This document shows, one piece after another, positions 20,139-36,441 of a stretch of DNA of 64,000 bases. The DNA lies in assembly GCA_039917735.1 (NCBI GenBank), contig JBDSIY010000102.1, forward strand, positions 3,888-67,887, in the 5' to 3' direction. The stretch is from Novosphingobium sp. Lineage in GTDB: Bacteria > Pseudomonadota > Alphaproteobacteria > Sphingomonadales > Sphingomonadaceae. Under the pieces are notes generated by a model that was given only the letters and a program-made list of their open reading frames with translations, was not told the origin of the DNA and did not search any database. Position 1 is the first letter of the stretch. The number at the start of each line of letters is the position of its first letter. A program made the translations under genes and the position numbers.

Positions 20139-21608
20139 TCAAGCCAGGCCTCGCTCTCGCGTCCGGACAGCGGCGAGTTTGGCCTGATCGATCCGGAAGG
20201 TGCCGACCAGGAAGGCCATCGCGCTGCCCGCGACGAGGATCAACGTCAGCACGAACCAGGCCAGTGCGTTCACCTTGTCGGCCGGCATCTGCTCGACCGA
20301 CAGGCCCGCAGGAAAGTGGATCAGGCCGAGGAACGAGCCGGCGAGCAGCGCCACCGCGCCGCTGCCAAGCTGCAGGCCGATGAACATGAAGCTGGCGACC
20401 AGGCCCTGCGCCGGCCGGCCGGTGTCTGCCTCGTGCTCGTCACCGATGTCATAGGTTACGACGTTGAACGGGACCACGTAGAGCCCGTAGGCAACACCGC
20501 CAAGGAAGCGGATGGCGAAGATGAAAGCGCCAATCGCCGCGGTCCCGGGCGGCGGCGAGAGGCCGGCGAGCGGCAGTAGCACCGCGCATGCCTGAATCAT
20601 GAAGAACGCGCTCAAGCCAAGCATCATGGCCCGCCGGCTGCCAACCGCACGGAGGAACGCGGGCGCCACGATCATTGCCGCGAGCGTGCCGAACACCCCC
20701 GCCATCAACAGCCGCGGCGTCCAGGTGCCGTCGAGCTGCCAGAAGTAGGTCGCGAGATGCAGCGACAGCTGGTTGATCACCGAGTTGGTGAACAGGACCA
20801 GGAAGGCCACCAGCAGCAGCCGACCGATGTTCGGCGTGGTCCTTACCGCTACCGCGAACCTTTTGAAGATCGCGACGATTCCCGTGTCTCCGCTTTCCGA
20901 CGGCGTTGCCGCCATCGCCTCGATTGCCCGCGCACGTCGATAGGTCCCGACTGCCCCGATCAGCATCAACACGCCGCCGAGCAGGGCCACGAACAGGCCG
21001 AAGCCGGGGTAGGGGGCGGGATTGAGCTGCGGCTTGGGGAAAGCAGCGGTGTGGACGAAGAACACACCGAAGGCGATCGCAGGGACCGAGAGGATGACCA
21101 GCTGGTTGCCAAGATTGCGCAGCACGGCGATGATCCGCCGCTCGGCCTGCAGTTGCGACAGCTCGCCGCCGAGCGCGTAGGCGGGCACCGTCCAGAACGA
21201 TATGCCGCATCGCGCCAGCAGCCCGAATCCGAGCAGCCAGGCGAGGATTGACGGCTGGCTCATCCCTTCTGGGGGCGAGAAGACCCCGGCGATGCCGATC
21301 ATGAACGGAATGATCGCCGCGAACATCAGCGTGTGGCGACGGCCGAACCGCGCGCCGGTTAGCCGGTCGGACAATCCACCGATCCACGGATCGACGATCG
21401 TGTCGAAGGCGATGATCACCGCGATGGCAGTGCCGATCAGCAACCCGTCGAGGCCGACCACCTGGGCATAGAAGAACAGCACGAAGGCGTCCCAGGCGAA
21501 GGCCTTGAGCAGCTCGGGCATGGCGCAGACCATCCACGCCAGCCGCTCTGGCCATGACAGCCTGTCGCTTATGGCGGGCGCAGTTGCGCCTGCTCCAACA
21601 ATCGCCAC
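20139..21608 (-). CDS. MFS transporter (GPH/MFS_2-like)
   Basis: DTIVDPWIGGLSDR, RFGRRH, about 12 hydrophobic segments; GTG 21608 has a GGGAGAG RBS (track start 21635). Confidence 0.88.
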   Translation of the reverse strand: MAIVGAGATAPAISDRLSWPERLAWMVCAMPELLKAFAWDAFVLFFYAQVVGLDGLLIGTAIAVIIAFDTIVDPWIGGLSDRLTGARFGRRHTLMFAAIIPFMIGIAGVFSPPEGMSQPSILAWLLGFGLLARCGISFWTVPAYALGGELSQLQAERRIIAVLRNLGNQLVILSVPAIAFGVFFVHTAAFPKPQLNPAPYPGFGLFVALLGGVLMLIGAVGTYRRARAIEAMAATPSESGDTGIVAIFKRFAVAVRTTPNIGRLLLVAFLVLFTNSVINQLSLHLATYFWQLDGTWTPRLLMAGVFGTLAAMIVAPAFLRAVGSRRAMMLGLSAFFMIQACAVLLPLAGLSPPPGTAAIGAFIFAIRFLGGVAYGLYVVPFNVVTYDIGDEHEADTGRPAQGLVASFMFIGLQLGSGAVALLAGSFLGLIHFPAGLSVEQMPADKVNALAWFVLTLILVAGSAMAFLVGTFRIDQAKLAAVRTRERGLA

Positions 21609-21655
21609 AGCCGCTCTCCCGATTTTGCACGCCACGGCGGGGCGGGCGCGTCAAT

Positions 21656-21671
21656 TAGAATATATATTCTA
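21656..21671. promoter_or_regulatory. Palindromic operator, copy 1 (TAGAA-N6-TTCTA)
   Basis: TAGAATATATATTCTA, a perfect palindrome upstream of the MFS gene. Confidence 0.8.
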
Positions 21672-21700
21672 TATTGAAAACCGGAGTCAACCGTCCGTGG

Positions 21701-22381
21701 TTAGAAGGTCGCTTTCAGATAGGCGAGGCACATCCGGCCGAGTTCGCGCTTGAGCAACGTCCAGTCGGTGCTCTGCGCCGATTCACCGGTCGAACCGAGG
21801 CTGAGTTCGCGTGCGAGTGTCGCAAAAATGATCTGGTGGGTGGCCCGTGCCTTGGTCTCGTGATCATCGCCGCCAAACTCGTCACTATAAGCCAGCATCG
21901 CGCCTGCCCCGAGCCGCGCCGACCGAAAGGCGCTCTCCTTTCCCGGCCCCGAAACGAGCGGATCGAACGACGCGCGCTCCATCGACAAGCGTAGCAGCGG
22001 CGCGTTCAGCTTGAGCACCTCGGCATAGGCTTCGACATAACGCGGCACGAAGTCGGCCAGCGAGGTTGACGATGCGCGCAGCTCCGCCAGCATCCGATCC
22101 TCGTCGACGACAATTCCTTCAAGCGCATTGGCGATCACGGCGCGGACGAGGTTCTCCTTGCTTTCGAAGCGGAGGTAGATCGATCCGATCGATACCTTGC
22201 CCCGCTGGCTGACGTCCTGGAGGGTAAAATCCTCACTTCGCAGTTCAAGCATAAGTTCCCGCGCCGCGCCGAGCATGCGTTCAAATGAGGCCTGGCTGCG
22301 GCCTTGCCGCGGCTTGCGGCTGACGGTCTCAACCGCGAAGGCTGGAGCTGGGGACGGTTTCTTTTTCGAAGCTGTTGACAT
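21701..22381 (-). CDS. TetR/AcrR family transcriptional regulator
   Basis: PRQGRSQASFERMLGAAREL...FTLQDVSQRGKVSIGSIYLRFESKE HTH. Confidence 0.92.
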   Translation of the reverse strand: MSTASKKKPSPAPAFAVETVSRKPRQGRSQASFERMLGAARELMLELRSEDFTLQDVSQRGKVSIGSIYLRFESKENLVRAVIANALEGIVVDEDRMLAELRASSTSLADFVPRYVEAYAEVLKLNAPLLRLSMERASFDPLVSGPGKESAFRSARLGAGAMLAYSDEFGGDDHETKARATHQIIFATLARELSLGSTGESAQSTDWTLLKRELGRMCLAYLKATF

Positions 22382-22407
22382 CGCTGCCAGCCAGAGATTA
22401 TCAAAAC

Positions 22408-22423
22408 AAGAACGTCAATTCTA
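22408..22423. promoter_or_regulatory. Palindromic operator, copy 2
   Basis: AAGAACGTCAATTCTA in the divergent tetR / LLM intergenic region. Confidence 0.65.
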
Positions 22424-22467
22424 ATTTGAACGCGGGCAGCGAAAATGTGCCGCAAGGGAGAAAATGG

Positions 22468-23565
22468 ATGCGTTTCTCGGTGTTCCTCAATGCCCGTTCG
22501 CTCGGCCCGGACGAAGATCGGCAGTTGATGAAATCGCTCGAGCGCCACGCGCTACGCGCCAGTGAGGGCGGGTTCCAGGCCATCTTCATGCCCGACCACC
22601 ACTTCAACGGCTATATGCCGATGGCCAGCGACAGCTTCATCTACGCGGCCTACCTGGCGGCGAAGATGCCGCACATGCATTTCGGCTTCTCGGTCGTCTC
22701 CGTGCCGCTGCATCATCCGGTGCGCTTCACCGAGCGGGTCAGCATCCTCGACCAGCTGACCGACGGCAAGCTGCTGGTGGGGATCGGTTCGGGCACCACG
22801 CCCGAGGAGATGATCGGCTTCTCGGTCAACTACAAGGAAGCCAGCGCCCTAGCCGAGAAGAACCTGGCCACAGCCGAAGAGCTGTGGGCCAAGCGGATGG
22901 AAGACCCGGCGGTGGTGATCGACAACGGGCCGTACCAGGGCCGCGTGCTGCAGCGGATCACCCCGGCGCCCTATACACCTGGGCACGCCCGGCTGATGCC
23001 GGTAGCGATGAAAGAATCGAGCGCCCGCCGTGCGGCGGTCAACGGCTGGCCGGCGTTCATCCCCGCGTTCACCCCCCCGCAGATATTCGGCAACGAACCG
23101 TACAAGCACGTCAAGAAGTTCTTCGACATCTACAAGGGCATGCTGCTCGAGGCCGGGCATAGCGATGCGGTCGTCGCCGAGGCGCTGGGATGGACCACGC
23201 ACACCTACCAATGTGTCCATGTCGCCGAGAGCGAGGACCAGGCGCGCGAGGAGCTGGAGGTGATCCTGCGCGGCTATCAGGATGCGATCGACCGCGAAAA
23301 CGAGTTCAACGCCCGCGCCGAGAGTGATTCGCCAAACAAGAAGAGCGACGTCAATGTCACCGCGCTCGACGAGGGCTGGATCGGGACCTGGTGCCTTTAC
23401 GGCACGCCTGAGAAGCTGGTCGAGGAGCTGCGGCCCTACGCCGAGCTCGGTATCGGCAACGTCCTGTGCGGAACCACCACCGGTCCGCTCACCGAAAAGC
23501 GGCTCGCCTACGCCGACCAGACGCTCGACCTGCTGTCGCGCAAGGTCATTCCGGCGTTTTCATAA
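22468..23565 (+). CDS. LLM-class flavin-dependent oxidoreductase
   Basis: MPDHHF, HHPVRFTERVSILDQLTDGK, CLYGTPEK. Confidence 0.88.
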   Translation: MRFSVFLNARSLGPDEDRQLMKSLERHALRASEGGFQAIFMPDHHFNGYMPMASDSFIYAAYLAAKMPHMHFGFSVVSVPLHHPVRFTERVSILDQLTDGKLLVGIGSGTTPEEMIGFSVNYKEASALAEKNLATAEELWAKRMEDPAVVIDNGPYQGRVLQRITPAPYTPGHARLMPVAMKESSARRAAVNGWPAFIPAFTPPQIFGNEPYKHVKKFFDIYKGMLLEAGHSDAVVAEALGWTTHTYQCVHVAESEDQAREELEVILRGYQDAIDRENEFNARAESDSPNKKSDVNVTALDEGWIGTWCLYGTPEKLVEELRPYAELGIGNVLCGTTTGPLTEKRLAYADQTLDLLSRKVIPAFS

Positions 23566-23576
23566 GCGAGGTAGCC

Positions 23577-24746
23577 GTGCTCAACGTCGGGATTGTCGGG
23601 GCAGGGGCGATCGCTCCGCCCTATTACATGGCGGTAGCGGCTTGGCCGCAGCTGCGCTTCCTCGCCTGCACCTCGCGCCGGATGGAGAGCGCGAGGAGGA
23701 TGGCGGCGCAGCACGGGGTTGCCGCCGTTCCGTTGGCGACGATGCTCGCGGACCCCGCGATCGACACGATCGTCAACTTGACGCCGATCCAGGCTCATTA
23801 CGCGACGAGCAAGGCGATCCTCGAGGCCGGCAAGCACCTGTATTCGGAGAAACCGCTGGCGGCGACCGTCGCCCAGGCGCGCGAGCTGCTGGTGCTGGCT
23901 GAGGCGCGCGGGCTGCGCGTCGGCTGCGCACCCGACACATTCTTCGGCTCTGCGCATCAGGAGGCGCGCGCTGCAGTTGACAGCGGTGCGATCGGCACGC
24001 CGGTCGGCGCCGCGCTGTTCCTCGGCACAAGCGGCTGCGAGGCCTGGCATCCCTATCCCGAACCGTTCTACCAGACTGGGGCGGGCCCGGTCGCCGACCA
24101 TGCGCCCTACTACTTGACCCAGCTGGTCAATCTGCTCGGCCCCGTCGCGGCGGTCACGGCGATGAGCACCCTCCCGGCGAAAGTGCGCACGCTCGGCAAC
24201 AAGGCGCGTGCGGGCGAGACCATCGTCAGCGAGGTCGATACAACTGCCTCTGGCGTAATCGAGATGGAAGGCGGTCAACTCGTCACATTGACGATGTCCT
24301 GGGACATGGGGCCGCACGGGCGCAATCCGATCGAGGTCTATGGCACCGGGGGATCGCTGCACAACCCGGACCCGAACTGGTCGGACGGACCGGTGCGGGT
24401 GGTATCGGCAGAGGGCACGGTACGCGACCTTGATCACACCGACCGCGCATTCTCGCGGCCGACGATGATCACCTTTCAGGGCAATCCCGTCGCCTATTAC
24501 CGGCTTTGCGGGCTTGCCGACATGGCAGATGCGATTGCACAGGGCAGGCCGCATCGGGCCAGCGGCGGGCTCGCGTTCCACGTCCTTGAAGTAATCGAGG
24601 CGGTGCGGTTGAGCAGTGAGCTAGGTCGGCGAATTGAAATCGCCTCGCGTTGCGAGCGGCCCGCGCCGATCGGCGACGACATCTCTGATGCGGCAACCAT
24701 CAAACCCTTCGGCGAGGAGCTGCTCGATGCGCGAACCCTCTTTTGA
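23577..24746 (+). CDS. Gfo/Idh/MocA family NAD(P)-dependent oxidoreductase
   Basis: NVGIVGAGAIA Rossmann motif, GKHLYSEKPLA, RVGCAPDTFFG, GPVADHAPYY; GTG start. Confidence 0.92.
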   Translation: MLNVGIVGAGAIAPPYYMAVAAWPQLRFLACTSRRMESARRMAAQHGVAAVPLATMLADPAIDTIVNLTPIQAHYATSKAILEAGKHLYSEKPLAATVAQARELLVLAEARGLRVGCAPDTFFGSAHQEARAAVDSGAIGTPVGAALFLGTSGCEAWHPYPEPFYQTGAGPVADHAPYYLTQLVNLLGPVAAVTAMSTLPAKVRTLGNKARAGETIVSEVDTTASGVIEMEGGQLVTLTMSWDMGPHGRNPIEVYGTGGSLHNPDPNWSDGPVRVVSAEGTVRDLDHTDRAFSRPTMITFQGNPVAYYRLCGLADMADAIAQGRPHRASGGLAFHVLEVIEAVRLSSELGRRIEIASRCERPAPIGDDISDAATIKPFGEELLDARTLF

Positions 24747-27096
24747 CGAATGCTGCGCGCTGACCGCGGGCGCGGCGATGTGGGCGAGCGTTGCGGTGCC
24801 GGACGCCGGCATCCCCTCGTTCACCATGGCAGACGGCCCGATGGGCATTGCCAGCGGCAACGTCGACGAGCGCGAAATCTCGTTGCTCACGCCATGCCCG
24901 ACAGCGCTTGGCGCCACCTGGGACGTGGAGATCGTGCGCAAGATCGGCGGGGCGGTCGGCAGCGACGCGGTGGCACGGGGGATTGACGCCGTGCTCGCGC
25001 CGAATCTCAACCTCGCGCGCAGCCCGCTCGCCGGCCGGGCATTCGAGTATTTCTCGGAGGATCCGCTGCTCGCCGGCGTGCTCGGCGCAGCGTGGATTGG
25101 GGGTTTGCAGGATACCGGGACCGGCGCCGTCGCGAAGCATTTGGTCTGCAACGACAGCGAAACCGAGCGCGATCGGATCGACGTGCAGATCGATGAGCGA
25201 ACGCTGCGTGAAGTGTATCTGCTGCCGTTCGAGCTGGCGGCGGAGGCTGGCTGCGCGGGGATGCTCGCCGCTTACAACAAGGTCAACGGCAGCTGGTGTT
25301 CCGAACAAAACCACATCCTCACCACCATCCTCAAAGGCGAGTGGAACTTCCAGAACCTGGTGATGAGCGACTGGTTCGGCACCCATTCGACCGAGGGCAC
25401 GATCGCCAGCGGGCTCGACCTGGAAATGCCAGGTCCCGGCCGGTTCTGCGGCTCCAAGGTCGCCGAAGCTGTCCGATCCGGCGCCGTGACTCGCGAGCGG
25501 GTGGAAGACGCGGCGCGCCGGGTGGCTGCTACCGCGCGACAGGTTACGAGTCGGAAGAGCGATCCCCTGCCGCCCGCCGAGGCTCAAGCCGTCCTTGAGG
25601 AAGCGGCGGGCGAAGGCTTCGTGCTGCTGCGCAACCAAGGGGACATGCTGCCGCTGGTCCCGGGGGCGGTGAAGCGGATCGCGGTAATCGGTCCAAACGC
25701 GGCGGCGCCCTGCTACCAAGGCGGAACCTTCGCCAAAATAGCCGTTGCGCCCAACACGCCTACCCCGATCGACGCCATCCGTGCTCGCTATGGGGAACTG
25801 ACCGGGATCGTCTTCGAGCCCGGCGTCGATCCTCAGCCGCGGCTGCCGGCAATGCCGGCGCGCCCGGCGCGCGACCTGGGTGACGGCTGCCGCGCGGGGA
25901 TGACGATCGACTATTTCCCCAGCACCGATTGCTCGGGTGAGCCGCTGTTCAGTGAGACGCGCAGCACCAATTCGCTGGTCTGGTTCACCGGCCAGCATAC
26001 CCAGGGACGGTTCGATCAGCCCGGCTCGATCCGCGCCAGCGGTCGATTTGCCGTGGCCCAATCGGGTACCCACCGACTTTATCTTGGCGCCACGGGTCCG
26101 GCCCGGATGCTCGTCGACGGGTGCGACGTGTTGAAGGCCGGACGAGAACTCCCCGCGAGCGACGTCATGGGAGTGCTGAAAAGCGGCGACGCCGAAATGA
26201 TTGGGATCGAGTTCGAGGCAGGACGCGAGGTGCTGATCACCGTCGAATTCCGTTACGACGCGGCCCGGGTTCACGGGCTGTGGTACGGTATCCGCGCGCC
26301 GGACAGCGCCGAGGCAATGCTCGCGCGCGCGATCGAGGCGGCGAAGTCGGCCGACGCCGTGTTCCTGATCGTCGGCGAAACTTCCGATTCGAGCGTCGAG
26401 AGCAAGGACCGTCCCGACACCAAATTGCCGCCCGAGCAACTACGGCTGATCGAAGAGGTCTGTGCCGCCAACTCCCGCACCGCCGTGGTCGTCAATGTCG
26501 GACATGCCTTCGATGCGGAATGGGGCGAGCAGGCCGCGGCGTTGATGGTCGCCTGGTATCCGGGGCAAGGCTTTGCCACGGCGCTCGCCAGCGTGCTTGC
26601 CGGAGAACGCGAGCCCGGCGGGCGGATGCCGGTCAGCATCGCCCGGCGCGAGGCCGACTATTGCGGCTACGCGCTACAGCCGGACGCGGATGGCCGGCTT
26701 GCCTACGCTGAAGGAACGCTGCTCGGCTATCGCGGTCTGATCGCCAACCACACACCGGCGCGGCACGCCTTGGGCAGCGGTTTCGGCTATGCGCGTTTCG
26801 GGCTGGCCGGCGTCGCGGCGGGGGATGGCGAAATTTCGGTCACGGTCCGCAATGTTTCCGATCGTGCGGGCGCCGAAGTGATCCAGCTTTATCGCGATGC
26901 GCCTGAGTGCGCTCTCGTCGGCTTCAAGAAGGTACGGCTCGCTGCTGGCGAGCAGCGCCGGGTGACGATCCCGGTCGAGCGCCGCGCGCTGCGGAGCTGG
27001 CGGGACGGCTGGAGGATGCCCGATGCGCCGGTCGCAATACGCGTCGCGCGCTCGGCCGAAGATGTAGGAACCACGGTGGAAGTGACGGTGGCGTGA
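24727..27096 (+). CDS. GH3 beta-glucosidase with PA14 insertion, no signal peptide
   Basis: ADGPMG, LAPNLNLARSPLAGRAFEYFSEDP, KHLVCND, VMSDW nucleophile motif, FN3-like C-terminus. Confidence 0.92.
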   Translation: MREPSFDECCALTAGAAMWASVAVPDAGIPSFTMADGPMGIASGNVDEREISLLTPCPTALGATWDVEIVRKIGGAVGSDAVARGIDAVLAPNLNLARSPLAGRAFEYFSEDPLLAGVLGAAWIGGLQDTGTGAVAKHLVCNDSETERDRIDVQIDERTLREVYLLPFELAAEAGCAGMLAAYNKVNGSWCSEQNHILTTILKGEWNFQNLVMSDWFGTHSTEGTIASGLDLEMPGPGRFCGSKVAEAVRSGAVTRERVEDAARRVAATARQVTSRKSDPLPPAEAQAVLEEAAGEGFVLLRNQGDMLPLVPGAVKRIAVIGPNAAAPCYQGGTFAKIAVAPNTPTPIDAIRARYGELTGIVFEPGVDPQPRLPAMPARPARDLGDGCRAGMTIDYFPSTDCSGEPLFSETRSTNSLVWFTGQHTQGRFDQPGSIRASGRFAVAQSGTHRLYLGATGPARMLVDGCDVLKAGRELPASDVMGVLKSGDAEMIGIEFEAGREVLITVEFRYDAARVHGLWYGIRAPDSAEAMLARAIEAAKSADAVFLIVGETSDSSVESKDRPDTKLPPEQLRLIEEVCAANSRTAVVVNVGHAFDAEWGEQAAALMVAWYPGQGFATALASVLAGEREPGGRMPVSIARREADYCGYALQPDADGRLAYAEGTLLGYRGLIANHTPARHALGSGFGYARFGLAGVAAGDGEISVTVRNVSDRAGAEVIQLYRDAPECALVGFKKVRLAAGEQRRVTIPVERRALRSWRDGWRMPDAPVAIRVARSAEDVGTTVEVTVA

Positions 27097-27120
27097 TCCG
27101 CGCCTGATCCGGCTGGCCGG

Positions 27121-28029
27121 CTATGGTTTTGCCTTCAGAAACCCGTTGGTCTGCAGCCAGCGGCGAAAGCCTTCGATCCAGTCGACCGTTGTCGTGCCCG
27201 CCTTGCCCAGGCCGAAGCCGTGGCCGCCCGACTGGTAGAGGTGGAATTCGGCCGGGATGCCCGCGCGCAGCCAGCTTTCGACAAGACCGAAGCCCTGTTT
27301 GGCGAACAGGGGGTCGTCTGCCGCCAGTACCGCGTAAAGCGGAGGCGCTTTCGCCGGCACTGGACCAGCGGCGAACCTGCCGTAGATCGGCGCGATGAAC
27401 GCCGGCATCGCATCCGGCGCCGCGGCCCGGGCGACGCTCAGCGTGGTGAAGGCGCCGGCCGAGAAGCCCATCATGCCGACGCGGTTCGGATCGATGCCCC
27501 AATCGCGCGCTCTGACGCGCACCAACCGCATCGCCGCGAGGCCGTCCGCGAGCGCCTCGGGCGGCGTGTCCGCCGGGGGGCGGAAGCTCGCGGGCCCCCT
27601 GCCGTTTCGCATCGCGATCACTTCGCGGCGGAATGCCGCCGGGTCGGCGGGCGTGGGTAGCACGCGGTATTTGAGCACGAACGCGGCAACGCCGTGGTCC
27701 GCCAGCCACTGGGCGATGCGGAAACCCTCCTCCTCGATTGCCAGGCCGAGGAAGGCGCCGCCGGGCGCGACGATCACCGCCGCGCCTGTGCCGGCTCCCG
27801 CAGGCGGCAGGAACGGCGTAAGCGTGGCTCCCGACACATTGCGGACCTGGAGAGACCCGTTTTGCCGAAACCAGTCCTCGCGCGGCTGACCCCGGCCGGT
27901 GCCGAGCGGGATAACGCCGGGGTAATCGGCCGGCGCGGCATCGCTGAACTGCATGATGACGGATTCCTGCGCGATGGCTGGACCGATGCCCGTCAGGGCG
28001 AATGCAAGCGCGGTCAGGAGGAGCTTCAT
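27121..28029 (-). CDS. Secreted alpha/beta hydrolase (BD-FAE/acetylxylan esterase-like)
   Basis: Signal peptide MKLLLTALAFALTGIGPAIA; VAPGGAF, GFSAG, DDP, GGHGFG. Confidence 0.85.
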   Translation of the reverse strand: MKLLLTALAFALTGIGPAIAQESVIMQFSDAAPADYPGVIPLGTGRGQPREDWFRQNGSLQVRNVSGATLTPFLPPAGAGTGAAVIVAPGGAFLGLAIEEEGFRIAQWLADHGVAAFVLKYRVLPTPADPAAFRREVIAMRNGRGPASFRPPADTPPEALADGLAAMRLVRVRARDWGIDPNRVGMMGFSAGAFTTLSVARAAAPDAMPAFIAPIYGRFAAGPVPAKAPPLYAVLAADDPLFAKQGFGLVESWLRAGIPAEFHLYQSGGHGFGLGKAGTTTVDWIEGFRRWLQTNGFLKAKP

Positions 28030-29231: not shown

Positions 29232-29305
29232 TGCCTCTCCCAACCGACGCTCGATTCGTCGTCGTGCCTGCTGCTTGCGTCAATTAACCCTGGAATCGCG
29301 TTGAG

Positions 29306-30130
29306 CTACTGCCCGGCCTTGATCCCGGCAATCTCAGTTGCGTCAATAGGACGGATCGCGACGTTGCGGAACCAGACCTCGGCAGCTTCGAACTCCAGCG
29401 CGATGCGGCCTTTCTTCAGTGGCGCGGCTCCGCGGTCGATCATCGCGAAGAGCGTCGTCACAATCCGTCCATTGACCAAGTGCGCGGCCTGATCGTCGAA
29501 GGCGTAAAGATCGAGCGTATTCCAACCATCGAGCTTCTCGTAAACACCCGAATGCCGTAACCACTGGCGAGCGAAGCCGCCGGCGACCAGCGGCTCCTGG
29601 TAGCTGCGTGGCAGGCCGGGGAAGTAGGTGGGCCAAAGCGGCGTTCCCCCCAACAGCGGTCCCTGGAGCGCCTTCGTGTTGACCATCACCGCGTCCCCAA
29701 CATCCCCTTCCTCAACTTGGAACTCGACGCAGTCGGGAAACAGCCGGTCTATTTCAGGGGCCATATGATAGAGGACGCCGCTGTTGCGCCGTTGCAGCCC
29801 GCGCGGCGCAAAGCGGCGCTCGCCCCATCGGAACTCGAGCCGCAGGTGGAAGTCGTGCCATTCCTGCACCGTGGCGATATGGCCGAACGTCGCGCTGGCC
29901 GGTCCGTCGAAATCGGGGCCGAGAAAGTGCAGCATGCCTTGATCGATCGCGATCGCCTGGTGAGCATCACGATTGCCAACGCCCTGCTGAAAGATCGTCC
30001 AGCCATCCAGATCCCGGCCGTTGAACAACTTGCGCCAATTGGGCTCGGTCGGCGCCGCTGCGAGCAGCCGGGCCGGAGCAAGAGCAAGCGCAGCGGCCGC
30101 GGAACCGATTGCATGGCGGCGGTCGAGCAT
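29306..30130 (-). CDS. DUF1080 (3-keto-disaccharide hydrolase family) protein with twin-arginine-type signal
   Basis: MLDRRHAIGSAAAALALA; LFNGRDLDGW, DFHLRLEFRWG, NSGVLYH, EFQVEEGDVGD, GRIALEFEAAEVWFRNV. Confidence 0.88.
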   Translation of the reverse strand: MLDRRHAIGSAAAALALAPARLLAAAPTEPNWRKLFNGRDLDGWTIFQQGVGNRDAHQAIAIDQGMLHFLGPDFDGPASATFGHIATVQEWHDFHLRLEFRWGERRFAPRGLQRRNSGVLYHMAPEIDRLFPDCVEFQVEEGDVGDAVMVNTKALQGPLLGGTPLWPTYFPGLPRSYQEPLVAGGFARQWLRHSGVYEKLDGWNTLDLYAFDDQAAHLVNGRIVTTLFAMIDRGAAPLKKGRIALEFEAAEVWFRNVAIRPIDATEIAGIKAGQ

Positions 30131-30136
30131 CCCGAC

Positions 30137-30529
30137 TTACGCCGCCAAAGCCAGTTCCTTGGTGTCCTTGGTGGTGGGCACGAACGGCAGGTAGGACACC
30201 CGCATCCGCACCGCGAAGGTGATGCTGTGCTTGCCGGGCGCCAACCCACCCGGCTTCAGCGCGACAATCCGCGCCTTCTCGCCGAAATTCCAGCGGTCGT
30301 CCAAGACGGTTTCCATCTCGTCGAGCGTATAGGTCTTACCGCGGACCGAGAATCGCACGTCCTCGCGCGCGATCGCGTCGCCGTCGACGGTGACGGCGAT
30401 GTCCTCGACCATCGAGAGACCGAGGCCGCGATAGTAGGGCAGCCGGCCCAGAAAGGCGAAGCCGATGGTCTCGCCGTTCTCGACGACGTTCTCGAACAGC
30501 TCGGTGCAGATCATTTTGTTGTCCATCAT
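30137..30529 (-). CDS. DUF6379 protein, C-glycoside deglycosidase beta-subunit-like
   Basis: RLPYYRGLGLSMVEDIAVTVDG, GKTYTLDEM, W.FGE.A, GGLAPGKH, R.SYLP; directly downstream of the TIM-barrel alpha-like gene. Confidence 0.82.
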   Translation of the reverse strand: MMDNKMICTELFENVVENGETIGFAFLGRLPYYRGLGLSMVEDIAVTVDGDAIAREDVRFSVRGKTYTLDEMETVLDDRWNFGEKARIVALKPGGLAPGKHSITFAVRMRVSYLPFVPTTKDTKELALAA

Positions 30530-30584
30530 GGGATGGCACTCCGATTGGGGCCGGCGTTGATCGTTCGGCCAGCGAAATGGGATC

Positions 30585-30672
30585 GTCATGCTGAACCCGG
30601 TTCAGGATCCATCGCGCGCGCCGGGGAAAACGGCGAAAGGGTAAATGGACCCGGATCCAAGTTCAGCGTGAC
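30585..30672. other. Intercistronic imperfect inverted repeat (stem-loop)
   Basis: GTCATGCTGAAC (30585-30596) pairs with GTTCAGCGTGAC (30661-30672) at 11/12; the inner GGATCCAT pairs with ATGGACCC or GGATCC. Confidence 0.55.
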
Positions 30673-30689
30673 AAGGGAAAACGGGTGGG

Positions 30690-31700
30690 TCAGGCCGCCT
30701 TGAGGGCCGGAACCTCCGGTTCACCGAGCAGCTGCGCCAGCATCACCTGCTGGCGCCGGACCTGCTCGACCGAATCCGGCTCCTCGGCGTCTTCGATCCA
30801 GCGATTGCCTTCGTATTCGGAGCATATGTAGCCCTGATAACCACCCTGCTTGAGCACCGACACGATCTCGTCGTAGGGGATAGACGGCTCGACATAGTCG
30901 GCGGTCATCTCATAGAACTTGCCGTGGACGTTGTGGATGCGCGGCATGTAGTCGAGCATCCGCTTCGGCTCGAACGCGGCGTTGTGGCGCATCACCTCGG
31001 CCATTGCGATGGCCGGGCCGACGCCGCCCATTTGCTGAACGTCAAGGATCACATATTCGGACAGCACCCGGTCCTCGTATGCCTTGACGATATAGTCTGC
31101 GATGTTCTTCGGCACGCCGAGCCGTTCGAACTTCGCCCGCCAGACGGGTGGGTAGGCATGGAGGAACATGCCCATGTCGGGGAGGAAGCCGAGCGCCGGG
31201 GAGCCCGACTTGTCGAAAGCCTCGGCGAGGCGGATGATCCAGGGATGGTCGAAGTGCAGCGGAGCGTGGACTTCGGTGAGCAGCATGATGCCCTTTTCTT
31301 CGGCATAAGGCGCGGCGGCGACCAGCACGTCCGGCGAGATCGAGACCAGCGAACGCAGATATTTCATGCCGAGCCGGACGCCGAAATCGATGTCCTTGCG
31401 CACGCTGGCGACCTGTTCGTCGAACGGCATCAGCCGCCCCTTGTAGCGCTTGTAGTCGAGCATGTAGTCGTGGCTGACCGGAACCGTGCCGTACTTCTGC
31501 ATTAGCCCATGCCAGTTGGCGATGGCGGCGTCCTCGACGCCGACCTCGGGCCAACCCCAGAAGCTCTGCTCGCCGATGATCTCGATGCCATAGGCGCCCA
31601 TTTCGGCGCAAGTCCGGACGCAATCCTCCAGGTTCATCTTTCCCTGAAAGGTCTCGTTCTGGAAGCTGTAAAGGCTCACGCCCCGCTTGATGTCCGCCAT
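30690..31700 (-). CDS. Metal-dependent TIM-barrel, C-glycoside deglycosidase alpha-subunit-like
   Basis: GVSLYSF N-terminus; candidate metal/catalytic motifs EVHAP, PDMG, HGKFY, SEYEG; paired with DUF6379. Confidence 0.82.
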   Translation of the reverse strand: MADIKRGVSLYSFQNETFQGKMNLEDCVRTCAEMGAYGIEIIGEQSFWGWPEVGVEDAAIANWHGLMQKYGTVPVSHDYMLDYKRYKGRLMPFDEQVASVRKDIDFGVRLGMKYLRSLVSISPDVLVAAAPYAEEKGIMLLTEVHAPLHFDHPWIIRLAEAFDKSGSPALGFLPDMGMFLHAYPPVWRAKFERLGVPKNIADYIVKAYEDRVLSEYVILDVQQMGGVGPAIAMAEVMRHNAAFEPKRMLDYMPRIHNVHGKFYEMTADYVEPSIPYDEIVSVLKQGGYQGYICSEYEGNRWIEDAEEPDSVEQVRRQQVMLAQLLGEPEVPALKAA

Positions 31701-31760
31701 AAATCCTCTCTCGTGAAGGCATCCACCCTGAGCGGGCTTGCGCCGCCCGGTGATGCAAAC

Positions 31761-31776
31761 TAGAATCTATATTCTA
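31761..31776. promoter_or_regulatory. Palindromic operator, copy 3
   Basis: TAGAATCTATATTCTA followed by TATTG; 20/21 identical to copy 1 with its flank; upstream of the alpha-subunit gene. Confidence 0.8.
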
Positions 31777-31861
31777 TATTGCGCGCCCACCGTCAAGAGT
31801 GAAAGTTCCCTGAGAGAGAAATTAACACGCTTGTGGCGCGTGGCCGGGTTGTTTCCTGCCG

Positions 31862-33202
31862 TTAAGCGGTCGCCAGTCCCCGGGCGGTGATGTCGTCCCG
31901 GATGCGCTGATGCTTGCCGTCCATCGGCCAGAACATCACGACGAGGATCTGGAGGCCGATCAGGACCACCGCCCCGCCATAATAGGACCATCGTATCGCC
32001 TCGCGCGCAGCGTCGCTGACCGAACCGGGCGCATAATCGTAGAATCCGAGCATGAACGCGATCCCGGCGGTGCCGATCGCCATGCCGATCTTGGTGGCGA
32101 GGCTGACGCCGGCGGACAGCAGCCCCTCCTTACGGGTGGCGAACAGCCACTCGTGGTAGTCGACGGTCTCTGCGATCATCGTGAAGGCGGCGGTGATCGT
32201 GATCGAGGTCGCGAAACTGGCGAGGAAATAGATCGCCAGAAACAGCGGCGGGTTCGTTTCGGTGAGCGGCAATAGCAGGAACAGGATCATCGCCGCGAAG
32301 AGTACGGCGACGCAGCCCCGGCGGATGCCGGTGCGGGCGAGGATCGCCGGTGCGACAAAAGACGACAGTAGTAGCATCCCGGCGACGGCCGGCAGCATCA
32401 CCGAGATCATCCAGGGCTCGCGCAGCACTTCGATCGCGAAATAGGTCGTCACCGACATCATCGCGCCGAAGCGGATGAAGTAGAGCAGGCAGAAGCCGAA
32501 GCTGACGATCCAGGCGCGGTTGTGCAGCATCTCGCCGACGGCGGGGAGGATGGCGAATTTTGCCGATCCGGCATCCTCGTAGCGCTCGCGGCAATTGCGG
32601 AACAGATTGATCAACGCGGCCAAAGACAACCCGGCGAACAGCACCGCCACGGCCAGGAAGCCGCGTTGCTCATCGCCCCTGCCGAAAAGGCCGACCAGCG
32701 GCATCGTTGCCGCCGTGCCGAGCACCACCGCCACAGAGGTCCCGATCGAGCGCATGCCGCTCAGGCGCAGCCGATCCGACGTATCCTCGGTCATCATCGG
32801 CATCAGCGCGGTATAAGGGATCGACCCGAACGACATGACAATGCCCAGCGCCTTGAAGGTCAGGAAGGCATAGACGAGTTGACCCCATTGCGACCATCCC
32901 GGCACGCTGAACACCAGCACGAACAGGACCGCATAGGGAACCGCGGTGACCAGGAAATAGGGCCGCGTCCGGCCCCAGCGGCTGCGCGTCTTGTCGACGG
33001 CGATGCCAACCAGGAAGTCGATCACCGCGTCGAGCAGCCGGGCGGTCAGGAAGATCGTCCCCACCGCAGCGGCGGGCAGCTTCACCACGCTGACGTAGTA
33101 GTAGAGCAGGAACCCGCTCGCCATATTGTAGGGCAGGCTGTAGCCGAGGTCGCCGAAGCCGTAGCTCAGCCGCTCTGACAAGCGTAGTCTGGGTTGTTCC
33201 AC
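31862..33202 (-). CDS. GPH (glycoside-pentoside-hexuronide):cation symporter
   Basis: ERLSYGFGDLG, ARLLDAVIDFLVGIAVDKTRSRWGRTRPY, ETVDYHEW; GTG 33202 with a GGAG RBS. Confidence 0.92.
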   Translation of the reverse strand: MEQPRLRLSERLSYGFGDLGYSLPYNMASGFLLYYYVSVVKLPAAAVGTIFLTARLLDAVIDFLVGIAVDKTRSRWGRTRPYFLVTAVPYAVLFVLVFSVPGWSQWGQLVYAFLTFKALGIVMSFGSIPYTALMPMMTEDTSDRLRLSGMRSIGTSVAVVLGTAATMPLVGLFGRGDEQRGFLAVAVLFAGLSLAALINLFRNCRERYEDAGSAKFAILPAVGEMLHNRAWIVSFGFCLLYFIRFGAMMSVTTYFAIEVLREPWMISVMLPAVAGMLLLSSFVAPAILARTGIRRGCVAVLFAAMILFLLLPLTETNPPLFLAIYFLASFATSITITAAFTMIAETVDYHEWLFATRKEGLLSAGVSLATKIGMAIGTAGIAFMLGFYDYAPGSVSDAAREAIRWSYYGGAVVLIGLQILVVMFWPMDGKHQRIRDDITARGLATA

Positions 33203-33227
33203 CGGATCGTCTCCAGTCTGGTTCGGA

Positions 33228-33566
33228 TCAGAGGCCGAGCGCGGCGCGGGTCTTGGCCAGGGACTCGGCGGCGGGAAGCGTCGGCTTGTATTCCAGCCCG
33301 ATGCCGCCGTCATAGCCAAGCTCGAGCGGCATCGCGATCACCACCGGCCATTCGACCAGGCTGCGGCGCGGCTCAACGACAATCCCGGTTAGCTGAACGC
33401 CGGTCTCAGCGAGCACGGGGCCAATCGTGGCGACATCCTTGTCGCGCCAGAAATGGAACTCGACGGCGTCAAAGCCAGCGGCGCGGGCGGCACGGATGCG
33501 TTCGGGGGTTTCGGGGTGCTCAGACGCAAACAGCCTTTCGATGCACGGCGATAGGTACACGGGCAA
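33228..33566 (-). pseudogene. Hydroxypyruvate isomerase (Hyi)-like TIM barrel with a large in-frame internal deletion
   Basis: The N-terminus (LSPCIERLF...RIRAARAAGFDAVEF) joins directly to the C-terminus (LGYDGGIGLEYKP). It is 112 aa versus ~250 aa for the family, and the central EPLN / D.YH / H.AD.PGR motifs are absent. Confidence 0.78.
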
Positions 33567-33624
33567 TCTCTCCCATCGCGCCGCACCCGTTGTTCGGGCG
33601 TCGAGCTGGCGTGTCGCCGTTTAT

Positions 33625-33640
33625 TAGAATAGCAGTTCTA
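33625..33640. promoter_or_regulatory. Palindromic operator, copy 4
   Basis: TAGAATAGCAGTTCTA in the divergent hyi*/TonB receptor intergenic region. Confidence 0.78.
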
Positions 33641-34020
33641 GTTACCGGGTGAGCGGGGTTTGCGCAAGCCCTTTTCCCAACGCAGGCGCCGTCGCCATGG
33701 CCTCGGCGCAATCCGGATGGCGGGGCACGGCGCCTGCTGCCAGGCGGGGCATGCGATTGCTGTTATACATAGCCCCCAGCTATGAAACATCGATAAAACA
33801 TTATTTTACGCGACCGGGGCGGTGGGGCAGGAGTTGCGCGGCAAGGCATCGCTTCATGCGCAAAAGTTGAACGCAGCAATTCCAGTTGTGGTCTGCTATT
33901 GAAACAAAAAATTCGACCGATGGATTAGCCGGTGGCAGAGGCAACGCGGTGTCCGCGGTACGTCTTTAGCGTGAATCGTAGGCGCCCGAAGCGGCGTCGA
34001 ATTTGGGGAGAGTGATCATC

Positions 34021-36441
34021 ATGTCCAAGCGAACGTACCTGCGCGCCTTGCTGACTGGCGCCGCCATCTTGGCGCCGGTCACACCGGCGCTGGCACAGCC
34101 GAGCGCGGCTGACGACAGCAACATTATCATCGTCACCGCGCAGAACCGCGCGCAGGCGGTGAACGATGTGCCGATCGCGATTGACGTGGTGACCGGCGAG
34201 AAGCTGCAGCAGGCTGGCTTTTCGAACATGAACGACATCGACAAAATCGCCCCCGCCGTCCAGCTCAACCAAGACCAGGGCACGGTGAAAGTCACCGTGC
34301 GCGGTGTCGGCACCAACTCCAATGATGAAGCGCAGGACACCTCAGTCGTCATCAATATCGACGGGGAGTATCTGAACCGCCCTAATGCGCTTGGCGTTTC
34401 GCTGTTCGACCTGGACCGGGTCGAAGTCCTGCGCGGGCCGCAAGGCACGCTCTACGGACGCAACTCAACGGGCGGCGCGATCAACTTCATCACCCGCAAG
34501 CCGGGTACGGAATTCGGCGCCAACGCTTCGGCGAGCTACGGCAACTACAATGCAGTTCGGGTCGATGGTGGGATCGATCTGCCGTTCGGCACCATCGGCG
34601 GACTGCGCCTCGCCGGGTTCTACGATGAGCATGACGGCTACACGCGCCATCCTGCGAGACCGGGGTTCTTCGTATTCCCGGCGTTCGCCGGCGGTCGTTC
34701 GGACGACAACCAGGCCTACGGTGGCCGGGTGTCCTTGCAGCTCGAACCAATCGACCACCTGACCATCAACGTCGCCGGTGAATACGCCGAGCGCCACTTC
34801 ATTCCATCTACGTTTGCCTACACCGATCTCAACGGCGCCGGCAACGGCCCCGGCCCGAACTGCACGCTCAATGGGTACAGCCGAGTCGCACCGGCGTACC
34901 CCCAGACCTTGTGCGTACCGTCTAATACCAACTTCCTCTCCACCATCGACCGCTCCAATTTCCCCACGCCGTTCTTCGGCTTGGGCAACATCGACCAGAA
35001 AACCTACGCATTCCGGGGACGAGTGGCTTATGAATTCAGCGAGGCAGCGACTCTAACCTACACGGGCGGCTACCGCAACTTCAAGGAGAACTCCTACCGG
35101 CCGTTGCCGATCGTCTACCAGTCGTTCGGCTTCGGCAACGAGACGAAGACCCAGAGCCACGAATTACGGCTCAACGGCGTGGTGGGCGGCATCACCTATC
35201 AGCTGGGCGGGTTCTACTTCAAAGAAAAGATCGCCAGTGAAAGCGGCTTCTTCGTCGCTCCGATCGGGTTGCCTGGGGGTTCGTTCCTGACCTACTTCGG
35301 CCGCTTCATCAGCAGCGACAGCAAATCGGTCTTCGGCCAGGTCGAGGTGCCGCTCGGCAGTACCCTGACCGCAGTCGGAGGTCTGCGCTACACGAAGAAC
35401 TCCCGTGACGCGACCTACATCCAGGGCAACCCGTTCACTGCCTATAACACCGTTGCGATACCGGCCGGCCCGGGGTGCTCGGGCGCGATTGGCTCGTGTA
35501 TAGTCGGTAGCCCGAACTTCGCGCTGCTCGGCACAGGACCGGCCCGGAAAGACGTGTTCAACATCGCCGCCAACATCCAGCCTCTTTCGACCAGCGAGGA
35601 CAAGATCACCTGGCTCGCGGGTCTAAACTACAAGCCCAACCCCAACACGCTGATCTACGGGAAGGTCGCGACGGGCTTCAAGGGTGGCGGGTTCGATGCG
35701 ATCGGCAACTACAAGCCAGAAAGCAACACCGCCTACGAAGGCGGCTGGAAGCAGACCTTTGGCGATCACCGCCAGCACCAGTTCAACCTCAGCGCGTTCT
35801 ACTACGATTATAAGGATCTGCAGGTCTCCGTCCTGCTCGATACGACAAAGGGTGGCCAGACGTTCAACGCCGGTAAGGCGAAGATCTATGGCTTCGAGGC
35901 CACAGCCGACATCGCGTTGGACGACAATGACCGGTTCAATGCTTCGTTCAATTACCTACACGCGAAGTATGGAGAGCTGTTCGCCCAGTTCAATGTGTTC
36001 ACTGTTCCGGGCACGGGCCCGGACATCAACGGCGTGGGCGATCTCGATCCGAACACTCCGGGAATCCAGCAGCCGAACTTCAAGGGCAATACCCCTCCGT
36101 TCTCGCCTAAATTCATCATCACAATGGGCTATGAGCACGTTTTCGACCTAGGGGGCGCGGGCCATCTGACCGCTCGGGTCGATACCTTGTTCAAGAGCGC
36201 CTATTTCACCGACTTCTACAACTATCGCGACGGTCGCCAGAGCGCCTACACCCAGACCGGCGCCAGCCTGGAGTACAAGCCTGAGAACCGGCGCTTCACC
36301 GTCGCGGTGTTCGCCCGCAACCTCGAGAACGAGCGGACGCTGACTTATGGCAGCTTCGTCTCCGCAGGTCCGGACGACATCTACAATTGGCAATTCGGCA
36401 CGCCGCGGACTTACGGCGTACGCGTCGGCGTCGACTTCTGA
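34021..36441 (+). CDS. TonB-dependent receptor (~806 aa)
   Basis: Signal peptide, IIVTAQNRAQ, DRVEVLRGPQGTLYGRNSTGGAINF, C-terminal PRTYGVRVGVDF. Confidence 0.95.
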   Translation: MSKRTYLRALLTGAAILAPVTPALAQPSAADDSNIIIVTAQNRAQAVNDVPIAIDVVTGEKLQQAGFSNMNDIDKIAPAVQLNQDQGTVKVTVRGVGTNSNDEAQDTSVVINIDGEYLNRPNALGVSLFDLDRVEVLRGPQGTLYGRNSTGGAINFITRKPGTEFGANASASYGNYNAVRVDGGIDLPFGTIGGLRLAGFYDEHDGYTRHPARPGFFVFPAFAGGRSDDNQAYGGRVSLQLEPIDHLTINVAGEYAERHFIPSTFAYTDLNGAGNGPGPNCTLNGYSRVAPAYPQTLCVPSNTNFLSTIDRSNFPTPFFGLGNIDQKTYAFRGRVAYEFSEAATLTYTGGYRNFKENSYRPLPIVYQSFGFGNETKTQSHELRLNGVVGGITYQLGGFYFKEKIASESGFFVAPIGLPGGSFLTYFGRFISSDSKSVFGQVEVPLGSTLTAVGGLRYTKNSRDATYIQGNPFTAYNTVAIPAGPGCSGAIGSCIVGSPNFALLGTGPARKDVFNIAANIQPLSTSEDKITWLAGLNYKPNPNTLIYGKVATGFKGGGFDAIGNYKPESNTAYEGGWKQTFGDHRQHQFNLSAFYYDYKDLQVSVLLDTTKGGQTFNAGKAKIYGFEATADIALDDNDRFNASFNYLHAKYGELFAQFNVFTVPGTGPDINGVGDLDPNTPGIQQPNFKGNTPPFSPKFIITMGYEHVFDLGGAGHLTARVDTLFKSAYFTDFYNYRDGRQSAYTQTGASLEYKPENRRFTVAVFARNLENERTLTYGSFVSAGPDDIYNWQFGTPRTYGVRVGVDF

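Follow-up and report, generated by a model that had tools for sequence, protein, structure and literature searches.

A palindrome-linked C-glycoside deglycosidase locus in a Novosphingobium genome and a predicted Tat-exported oxidizing partner

Introduction

Plants, cereals among them, are rich in C-glycosylflavones and C-glycosylxanthones, and these compounds withstand ordinary glycosidases. To our knowledge, little has been described of the organisms that break them down in soil and rhizosphere, or of the routes they use, beyond gut Firmicutes, a few Actinobacteria, and Deinococcus. Here, we analyze a 64,000-nucleotide stretch of Novosphingobium sp. DNA (hereafter, the window; assembly GCA_039917735.1, contig JBDSIY010000102.1, positions 3,888-67,887) in which a two-subunit enzyme of the C-glycoside deglycosidase (CGD) family lies within a gene cluster at window positions 20139-36441. 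An earlier reading of the DNA letters, the original prediction, had described this cluster as an uptake and cleavage system for C-glycosides.

The closest characterized relative is the CGD of PDB entries 8QVC, 8QVD, and 8UMC, whose chains are named 'xylose isomerase-like TIM barrel' and 'DUF6379'. Like the pair in the window, it is a two-subunit α (TIM)/β (DUF6379) enzyme, and the EVH, PDMG, HxK, and EYE motifs are common to both. We take the source of 8QVC to be Deinococcus aerius. The statement in the original prediction that characterized CGDs come mainly from gut Firmicutes and Actinobacteria was incomplete, as this closest relative belongs to neither group. The oxidase of the Deinococcus cluster is presumably a pyranose-oxidase (POx)-like GMC enzyme; entry 8QVE matches the GMC flavoprotein described below at only 8e-10. 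We know of no TonB-dependent receptor (TBDR), small subunit with a twin-arginine translocation (Tat) signal, TetR palindrome regulon, or luciferase-like (LLM) enzyme in that cluster.

DgpA/DgpB-DgpC (PuCGD, strain PUE) and DfgA-DfgB (EuCGD) of gut Firmicutes, and CarA/CarB-CarC and AgCGD of soil Actinobacteria (PMC8563793), belong to the same family and share its metal and catalytic residues and its oxidize-then-eliminate logic, but identity to these CGDs is only ~25-30%. The oxidizing partner in those systems is either a cytoplasmic, NAD-bound Gfo/Idh/MocA enzyme (DgpA) or the O2-dependent, POx-like CarA, whereas the partner proposed here would be a GMC dehydrogenase that pairs with a small subunit and leaves the cytoplasm by the Tat route, in a system that includes outer-membrane uptake. 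CGD homologs in Proteobacteria were already noted by Mori et al. (PMC8563793).

Two other described systems bear on the comparison. An Agrobacterium tumefaciens operon encodes an oxidize/eliminate/hydrate/reduce route in which GlycDH is the oxidase and a Gfo enzyme the 3-keto-glucose reductase (PMC10628242). GlycDH was co-expressed with a TAT-pathway signal protein and combined in vitro with PuCGE to deglycosylate C-glycosides (Bitter et al., PMC10628242). That operon is alphaproteobacterial, and its glycoside 3-dehydrogenase, of GMC type, is accompanied by a Tat-signal protein; we liken our GMC enzyme by description to the characterized GlycDH (Rhizobium sp. GIN611/A. tumefaciens). AtHYD and the Gfo reductase of A. 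tumefaciens have counterparts in loci related to ours and on another contig of this genome (C65). The A. tumefaciens lyase, AtOGE, is a single-chain O-glycoside eliminase without sequence similarity to the CGD-type enzymes (CGEs; PMC10628242), in contrast to the CGD α/β pair found here. As proposed here, the AL/BT1-4 cluster of Bacteroides/Alistipes (bioRxiv 10.1101/2024.03.25.586180) oxidizes at C3 in the periplasm; it also has a DUF1080 protein that works as lyase/hydratase, a lyase of the TIM-barrel type, and a Gfo enzyme that serves as reductase in the cytosol. However, its oxidase is a Tat-exported Gfo/Idh/MocA enzyme rather than a GMC flavoprotein, and its lyases do not cleave 3-keto-C-glycosides.

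Results

A CGD α/β pair with a complete set of metal and catalytic residues

Pfam and PDB sequence searches with the products of 30690-31700 and 30137-30529 returned CGD subunits for both proteins, in agreement with the proposal that this TIM-barrel/DUF6379 pair belongs to the CGD family. The PF19906 match of CGD-β spans the full model (1-112), and the closest solved structure is 8QVC_B (42% identity, 106 aa, E = 1e-20), followed by DgpB, DfgB, and AgCarC2. For CGD-α, 8QVC_A scores E = 4e-110 with 53% identity across 329 aa, and there are further matches to 9M3B_A (DgpC1, 6e-38), 7BVR_A (PuCGD, 1e-36), 7BVS_A (EuCGD, 5e-31), and 7DNM_A (AgCGD2, 2e-30).

The motifs EVHAP, PDMG, HGKF, and EYEG, which had been read from the letters, sit at CGD-α residues 143, 174, 259, and 295. 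In AgCGD2-α, Mn2+ is bound by E147, D179, H269, K271, and E305, and H149/E307 form the catalytic pair (Mori et al., PMC8563793). Seven CGD-α residues are in register with these positions: E143, D175, H259, K261, and E295 correspond to the Mn2+ ligands and H145/E297 to the catalytic pair, a match established from motif, spacing (identical, 32 and 36 residues), and alignment to 8QVC rather than by direct alignment to AgCGD2. Neither subunit carries a signal peptide.

A scan of one genome per species identified 195 CGD-α relatives, of which the best 80 are referred to as related loci. These 80 are 78-88% identical in CGD-α and are almost all from Sphingomonadales, including Sphingomonas, Novosphingobium, Erythrobacter, Blastomonas, Sphingobium, and Sphingopyxis. 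Open reading frames (ORFs) of the related loci were called and clustered, and family representatives were annotated with Pfam. The metal and catalytic motifs are kept in 75-76 of 76 CGD-α orthologs. The α and β genes share a strand, are separated by a 160-nt spacer in the window, and are adjacent in 72-79 of the 80 related loci. Because homology at the PDB and Pfam levels coincides with conserved residues at identical spacing, CGD family membership of the pair is well supported, and the two proteins would together act as a deglycosidase. The enzyme itself is of a known family, and its β subunit is already named in Pfam.

A presumed palindromic operator shared by the cluster and a distal operon for a predicted dehydrogenase

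One palindrome had been said to recur in four promoter regions, and TAGAAT-N4-ATTCTA indeed occurs exactly four times in the 64-kb window, always between genes (positions 21656, 22408, 31761, and 33625; up to two mismatches). The expected number is 0.22, and none of 100 shuffles reached four. When at most one mismatch is allowed, the whole genome (112 contigs, 2.8 Mb) holds no sites beyond three of those in the cluster and a fifth operator, O5 (window coordinate 66911), ~2.9 kb past the window end. O5 separates divergent units, one encoding an AhpC/TSA peroxiredoxin and the other a Tat small subunit, a GMC flavoprotein, and a major facilitator superfamily (MFS) transporter. The regulon thus comprises at least five operators over ~49 kb.

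The palindrome is conserved among relatives, with the consensus aTAGAAT-N4-rTTCTAAT. With two mismatches allowed, the related loci (1.43 Mb) yield 203 matches, versus 2 and 6 for two control patterns. In 69 of 81 related loci, the CGD-α gene is preceded by a site no more than 400 nt away (median distance, 104 nt). When operon position is taken into account, the copies standing behind a palindrome are 64/75 for CGD-α, 24/29 for GH3, and 24/49 for the TBDR; the corresponding figures are 13/21 for the Tat small subunit, 9/10 for a second GMC type, 21/35 for a Gfo family distinct from that of the window (F7), and 16/32 for a hydratase.

The TetR-family protein has an N-terminal helix-turn-helix match, and operator O2 lies inside its own divergent promoter, for which reason TetR is the presumed binder and probably recognizes the palindrome. 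A scan for sigma-70 promoters gave no match in the relevant intergenic regions. The original prediction of apparent co-regulation is supported for a palindrome-linked, probably TetR-controlled set of genes for uptake and glycoside processing, predicted to act across both membranes; it is less certain for the TBDR in this genome, where O4 is ~380 nt from the TBDR start.

The Gfo/Idh/MocA enzyme is not conserved with CGD

In the original prediction, the Gfo/Idh/MocA oxidoreductase of the window was the DgpA-type oxidase of the pathway. This assignment appears unlikely, with PDB matches weak and unspecific and an association with CGD that is not conserved. The best matches are 3EVN (2e-15), DgpA1 9M3D (1e-13), AFR 2GLX (4e-13), and DgpA 7XR9 (3e-10), and the alignment to 9M3D is full length (residues 2-353). 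No NCBIfam model is matched above its cut-off, the best, IolG and levoglucosan dehydrogenase, remaining far below. An ortholog is found in one of the 80 related loci (L005, from S. tabacisoli). In an even sample of 251 Sphingomonadaceae genomes, 17 of which are positive and 234 negative for the Pfam family CGDB, it occurs in two of the 17 CGD-positive genomes and in two of all 251. Identity to the F7 Gfo is only 38% over 79 aa. The window Gfo thus appears, from these comparisons, to be a lineage-specific addition; a DgpA-like cytoplasmic role may still apply to it. By analogy with Agrobacterium, Gfo-type enzymes here would mainly reduce 3-keto-glucose.

A GMC dehydrogenase that co-occurs with CGD

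Within the region C102:70170-74615 (window ~66283-70728), which also holds the peroxiredoxin gene and O5, the operon behind O5 encodes the small subunit, the GMC flavoprotein, and a DHA2-like MFS transporter of the 14-transmembrane-segment type, and is followed by a LysR gene. The large subunit resembles the large subunits of membrane-associated fructose dehydrogenase (7W2J_A, 8e-44) and FAD-glucose dehydrogenase (6A2U_B, 3.5e-37). It carries a C-x5-C-x3-C motif, which we take to match the 3Fe-4S site of the fructose dehydrogenase/FAD-dependent glucose dehydrogenase (FAD-GDH) group.

GMC orthologs (at least 71% identity) are present in 15 of the 17 CGDB-positive genomes versus none of the 234 CGDB-negative ones (Fisher p = 3e-22, not corrected for phylogeny or linkage), and paralogs in the 251-genome sample are at most 59% identical. 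In most GMC-bearing genomes, the gene lies 2-13 kb from CGD. In our best reading, the GMC protein and its small subunit are a Tat-exported, conserved, regulon-linked partner that would oxidize the sugar at C3 for CGD.

Organization of the cluster and its accessory genes

ORF listing and Pfam/NCBIfam scans located every gene named in the original prediction within 20139-36441 (Table 1). The cytoplasmic assignment of GH3 fits its gene encoding no signal peptide. All three predicted MFS transporters are present; of the two described as GPH-like, MFS2b is a true GPH member, while MFS2a is distant and falls under the TIGR00792 cut-off. Two elements had gone unmentioned, the TIM4 remnant and the fifth palindrome.

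Table 1. Features of the CGD cluster in the window and of the O5-linked operon on contig C102 (window coordinates unless prefixed C102).
Feature	Position	Strand	Evidence and context
MFS2a, distant GPH-like MFS transporter	20139-21635	-	PF13347 139 bits; TIGR00792 only 68 bits, under cut-off
Operator O1, TAGAATATATATTCTA	21656-21671		Perfect palindrome between TetR and MFS2a, 21 nt 5' of MFS2a ORF start
TetR-family regulator, presumed repressor binding the palindrome	21701-22381	-	PF00440 27.7 bits (cut-off 24)
Operator O2, AAGAACGTCAATTCTA	22408-22423		2 mismatches; divergent TetR/LLM promoter region, 27 nt from TetR start, 45 nt from LLM start
Luciferase-like (LLM) flavoenzyme	22468-23565	+	PF00296 107 bits
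Gfo/Idh/MocA oxidoreductase, predicted cytoplasmic	23577-24746	+	Pfam; no signal peptide
GH3 β-glucosidase-like enzyme with PA14 insert, predicted cytoplasmic	24727-27096	+	Pfam, NCBIfam
α/β-hydrolase, acetyl/feruloyl-esterase-like, predicted secreted	27121-28032	-	PF07859, DLH, and BD-FAE matches; signal peptide MKLLLTALAFALTGIGPAIAQ
MFS_1 transporter, DHA1/aromatic-acid-symporter-like	28026-29231	-	PF07690 111 bits
Tat-signal DUF1080/3-keto-disaccharide-hydrolase-family protein, predicted periplasmic	29306-30130	-	PF06439 106.9 bits (cut-off 26.8); N-terminus MLDRRHAIGSAAAALALAPARLLAAAP
CGD-β (DUF6379, now Pfam CGDB PF19906)	30137-30529	-	PF19906 142.7 bits (cut-off 27.6)
α-β spacer with REP-like repeat, unusually long	30530-30689		Recurring segment elsewhere in genome
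CGD-α, xylose-isomerase-like Mn2+ TIM barrel	30690-31700	-	8QVC_A
Operator O3, TAGAATCTATATTCTA	31761-31776		61 nt upstream of CGD-α gene
Terminator-like hairpin 3' of GPH gene, splitting two transcription units	31825-31841	-	Consensus match only
MFS2b, GPH:cation symporter, conserved importer beside CGD	31862-33202	-	TIGR00792 283 bits (cut-off 231)
TIM4 remnant, 112-aa ORF	33228-33566	-	Weak AP_endonuc_2 match, N-terminus only
Operator O4, TAGAATAGCAGTTCTA	33625-33640		59 nt upstream of TIM4 remnant, ~380 nt upstream of TBDR gene
TonB-dependent outer-membrane receptor (TBDR)	34021-36441	+	Plug and barrel domains; signal peptide
Operator O5, TAGAATATCCATTCTG	C102:70798-70813		Between divergent peroxiredoxin and dehydrogenase units
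Tat small subunit, Gluconate_2-dh3	C102:70868-71500		PF13618 85.6 bits; motif NRRDFFGG
GMC flavoprotein large subunit	C102:71500-73188		PF00732 and PF05199; no signal of its own

LLM falls below every NCBIfam cut-off, and its best PDB match is 8CBB, an 'alkanal monooxygenase alpha chain' (8e-23). With orthology taken as 70% identity or more, 10 of the 17 CGDB-positive genomes have an LLM ortholog and none of the 234 CGDB-negative ones does (p = 9e-14). The locus holds no flavin reductase gene. The DUF1080 protein begins MLDRRHAIG...AAAP, a Tat-type (RR) signal, and the sequence search gave no informative PDB relative. Its ortholog adjoins the CGD-β gene in ~10 related loci, including that of N. 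aromaticivorans plasmid pNL2, and DUF1080 proteins have been described as 3-keto-α-glucoside lyases and glucal hydratases (Nasseri et al., bioRxiv 10.1101/2024.03.25.586180). The weak NCBIfam matches of the secreted α/β-hydrolase are acetylxylan and pectin acetylesterases.

The three transporters differ in conservation: orthologs of MFS2b stand upstream of the CGD-α gene in 57-60 of the 80 related loci, those of MFS_1 occur in 30-32, and those of MFS2a, usually after TetR, in 15. MFS_1 and the DHA2-like transporter may handle aglycones.

A reduced locus and additional 3-keto-glycoside loci in the same genome

The TIM4 remnant has lost 435 nt in frame (~145 codons, mid-barrel) relative to S. 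tabacisoli L005, as seen in a DNA alignment; the full-length protein has ~257 aa. A 265-nt, 100%-identical rhizosphere metagenome contig, possibly from the same sample as the genome, spans the junction (~33352-33374). TIM4 is not the Agrobacterium O-glycoside eliminase: it has no 8BVK match and resembles hydroxypyruvate-isomerase/YgbM-like proteins (3NGF, 2e-23). The spacer between the CGD genes is ~15 nt long in L005 versus 160 nt here, and its GC-rich, partly palindromic segment of 31-35 nt recurs at seven other places in the genome, in the manner of a repetitive extragenic palindrome (REP). L005, the closest relative, carries ThuA, an NTF2-like gene, the hydratase, and the F7 Gfo, none of which occurs in the locus studied here.

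The claim that the cluster holds a complete two-membrane pathway was not borne out, as the conserved candidate oxidase lies outside the window and the hydratase on contig C65. The hydratase (C65:15433-16485) stands beside an F7-type Gfo and a second Tat-small-subunit/GMC pair, whose GMC protein is 49% identical to that of C102. It shares 72% identity with the representative of its family. That representative matches PDB 8RO4, '2-hydroxy-3-keto-glucal hydratase' (E = 4e-177), an enzyme that acts on the sugar product of CGD. The surrounding region, C65:12170-25001, has the appearance of a generic 3-keto-glycoside locus, with the F7-type Gfo, the hydratase ortholog, an MFS transporter, a ketose-3-epimerase-like TIM barrel, a Tat-signal TIM barrel, and a ThuA-like protein. 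The 285-aa TIM barrel of C65 was likewise rejected as the Agrobacterium O-glycoside eliminase, having no 8BVK match and resembling ketose 3-epimerases.

A second CGD locus is found at C41:16985-29787. It encodes a secreted GH1, an esterase, CGD-β (PF19906, 129 bits), and a CGD-α 43% identical to the main family, together with a choline-dehydrogenase-like GMC oxidoreductase, MFS_1, two more TIM barrels, an intact TIM4-like gene, and TetR. The window palindrome is not present at this C41 locus.

Distribution of the module in Sphingomonadaceae

The conserved core of the related loci is formed by the GPH symporter, CGD-α, and CGD-β (57-79 of 80). The TBDR is found in 50-55 loci, the 257-aa TIM barrel TIM4 in 46, TetR in 41-47, and the GMC flavoprotein (family F6) in 36, while its Gluconate_2-dh3 Tat small subunit (F17) is found in 21. 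Next come the F7 Gfo/Idh/MocA (35), the second TIM barrel F8, which is the hydratase and is also called TIM8 (32), GH3 (30-33), LLM (26-29), and DUF1080 (~10).

PF19906 occurs in 17 of the 251 family genomes (~7%) and in 12 of 112 genera, and the CGD module is thus a patchy accessory trait that is probably mobile or frequently lost. Within the genus of the window, two of four sampled genomes carry CGDB, and several close homologs lie on megaplasmids. On plasmid pNL2 of the model strain N. aromaticivorans DSM 12444 (NC_009427.1, 179047-198048), the module comprises two CGD pairs along with DUF1080, a GMC oxidoreductase, TetR, and a TBDR. A catalase gene adjoins it, and a ParDE toxin-antitoxin pair interrupts it in the middle. 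RefSeq names for this copy are limited to 'TIM barrel protein', 'DUF6379 domain-containing protein', and 'DUF1080 domain-containing protein'. The peroxiredoxin gene adjoining O5 and the catalase gene of pNL2 hint at peroxide or quinone stress.

Window positions 29300-33600 were detected in four rhizosphere metagenome runs of one study (26-68% of sampled words). This suggests a root-associated organism, and a rhizosphere origin fits plant C-glycosylflavones as substrate without proving it.

Discussion

The CGD pair, the shared palindrome, and the co-occurring dehydrogenase together make it probable that this genome encodes a repressor-controlled, five-operator regulon for the uptake of aromatic C-glucosides, and probably of related O-glucosides, and for their deglycosylation by oxidation followed by elimination. 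In this model, the TBDR would carry the glycoside across the outer membrane, and the secreted esterase would strip acyl groups in the periplasm. There, the predicted Tat-exported FAD dehydrogenase (GMC large subunit and Gluconate_2-dh3 small subunit, C102:70868-73188) would oxidize the sugar at C3, and the Tat-DUF1080 protein could act as a 3-keto-α-glucoside lyase and/or a glucal hydratase. The GPH symporter would import the keto-glycoside. In the cytoplasm, the Mn2+-dependent CGD α/β enzyme would break the C-C bond to release the aglycone and 2-hydroxy-3-keto-glucal. The C65-encoded 8RO4-type hydratase would convert the glucal to 3-keto-glucose, which a Gfo/Idh/MocA enzyme, either the window's own or that of C65, would reduce to glucose. 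GH3 would trim O-linked glucose.

Several observations weigh against this model. The GMC operon is ~35 kb from CGD in this genome, with no cytochrome c or other electron-acceptor subunit encoded beside it, and both common descent and the joint transfer of linked genes inflate the co-occurrence counts. A cytoplasmic Gfo is encoded here, and 35 of the 80 related loci encode a different one; either enzyme could oxidize in the manner of DgpA, redox-neutrally and in the cytoplasm, in which case periplasmic oxidation would be unnecessary. C-glycosides need not be the main substrate, because CGD-type enzymes also eliminate 3-keto-O-glucosides; β-elimination by CGEs is described for both 3-keto O- and C-glucosides (PMC10628242). 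The TetR-proximal operator is degenerate, and only 2 of 25 TetR/LLM promoters of relatives match the palindrome within two mismatches. Finally, the locus looks reduced, given the internal deletion of TIM4 and the absence of ThuA, the hydratase, and other genes.

Some of these points feed an arrangement, in our judgment unlikely, that places all steps after import in the cytoplasm. The window Gfo would then supply CGD with substrate as a C3 oxidoreductase of the DgpA type, perhaps in a redox-neutral cycle in which 3-keto-glucose accepts the hydride, and the GMC enzyme would be irrelevant or only prime the cycle. The Gfo gene lies in an O2-controlled LLM-Gfo-GH3 operon, its product lacks a signal peptide, and DgpA1 (9M3D) gives the best PDB alignment over the full length; the recurrence of F7 in related loci points the same way, as does the use of 3-oxo-glucose as acceptor by DgpA (PMC11239390). 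However, unrelated Gfo members such as 3EVN score equally well or better, NCBIfam offers no specific match, orthologs are confined to a single related locus and two CGD-positive genomes, and the resemblance to F7 is low. In A. tumefaciens, moreover, the operon Gfo is a 3-keto-glucose reductase and not a glycoside oxidase (PMC10628242). The regulon might instead serve mainly O-glucosides or disaccharides through 3-keto intermediates, in the 'alternative glycosidase' style of Agrobacterium and Bacteroides, with the α/β pair as a 3-keto-β-O-glucoside eliminase and C-glycosides at most side substrates. DUF1080, GH3, and the esterase in the locus, ThuA and the hydratase in related loci, the breadth of GlycDH-type enzymes as glycoside 3-dehydrogenases, and the activity of CGEs on both linkages are all compatible with such a role. 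We nevertheless find it distinctly unlikely: both subunits are specifically of the CGD family (a solved CGD shares 53% and 42% identity with them) with a complete catalytic set, a generic GlycDH/hydratase/Gfo locus already exists on C65, and O-glycoside lyases need no β subunit (PMC10628242; bioRxiv 10.1101/2024.03.25.586180).

It is very improbable that the locus is a decaying remnant without a working pathway in a small 2.8 Mb genome. The in-frame loss of 145 codons from TIM4, the REP-like insertion that parts the α from the β gene, the missing ThuA, NTF2-like, hydratase, and F7-type Gfo genes of L005, and the distance of the GMC operon from CGD would fit decay, yet the remaining ORFs are intact with high GC content at third codon positions, the CGD catalytic residues are unchanged, all five operators are retained, and the genome holds a second CGD locus and a hydratase elsewhere.

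The five-operator regulon with C3 oxidation by the GMC dehydrogenase therefore remains our preferred model. More tentatively, we suggest that Gram-negative sphingomonads could use a split pathway with a third class of oxidizing enzyme, a Tat-exported dehydrogenase of the GlycDH/FAD-GDH type that is probably linked to the respiratory chain. C3 oxidation would then be periplasmic, import would proceed through the GPH symporter, C-C cleavage would be cytoplasmic, and one TetR operator code would govern the genes; LLM might catalyze an undescribed step on the C-glycoside or aglycone. Our literature search found no description of a sphingomonad or TonB-linked C-glycoside system, nor of a Gram-negative combination of a TBDR, a CGD-co-occurring GlycDH-type periplasmic dehydrogenase, GPH import, a TetR operator code, and a CGD-specific LLM.

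The enzymes may serve C-glycoside biocatalysis, and the precise operator sequence is a handle for finding further members of the regulon. With the module also carried on pNL2 of the genetically tractable N. aromaticivorans DSM 12444, the predictions can be tested quickly. Taken together with its 80 relatives, the locus defines a Gram-negative form of the CGD pathway. Its testable parts are the receptor of the outer membrane, an oxidase, predicted to be periplasmic, whose distribution follows that of the lyase almost perfectly, and a CGD-specific flavoenzyme.

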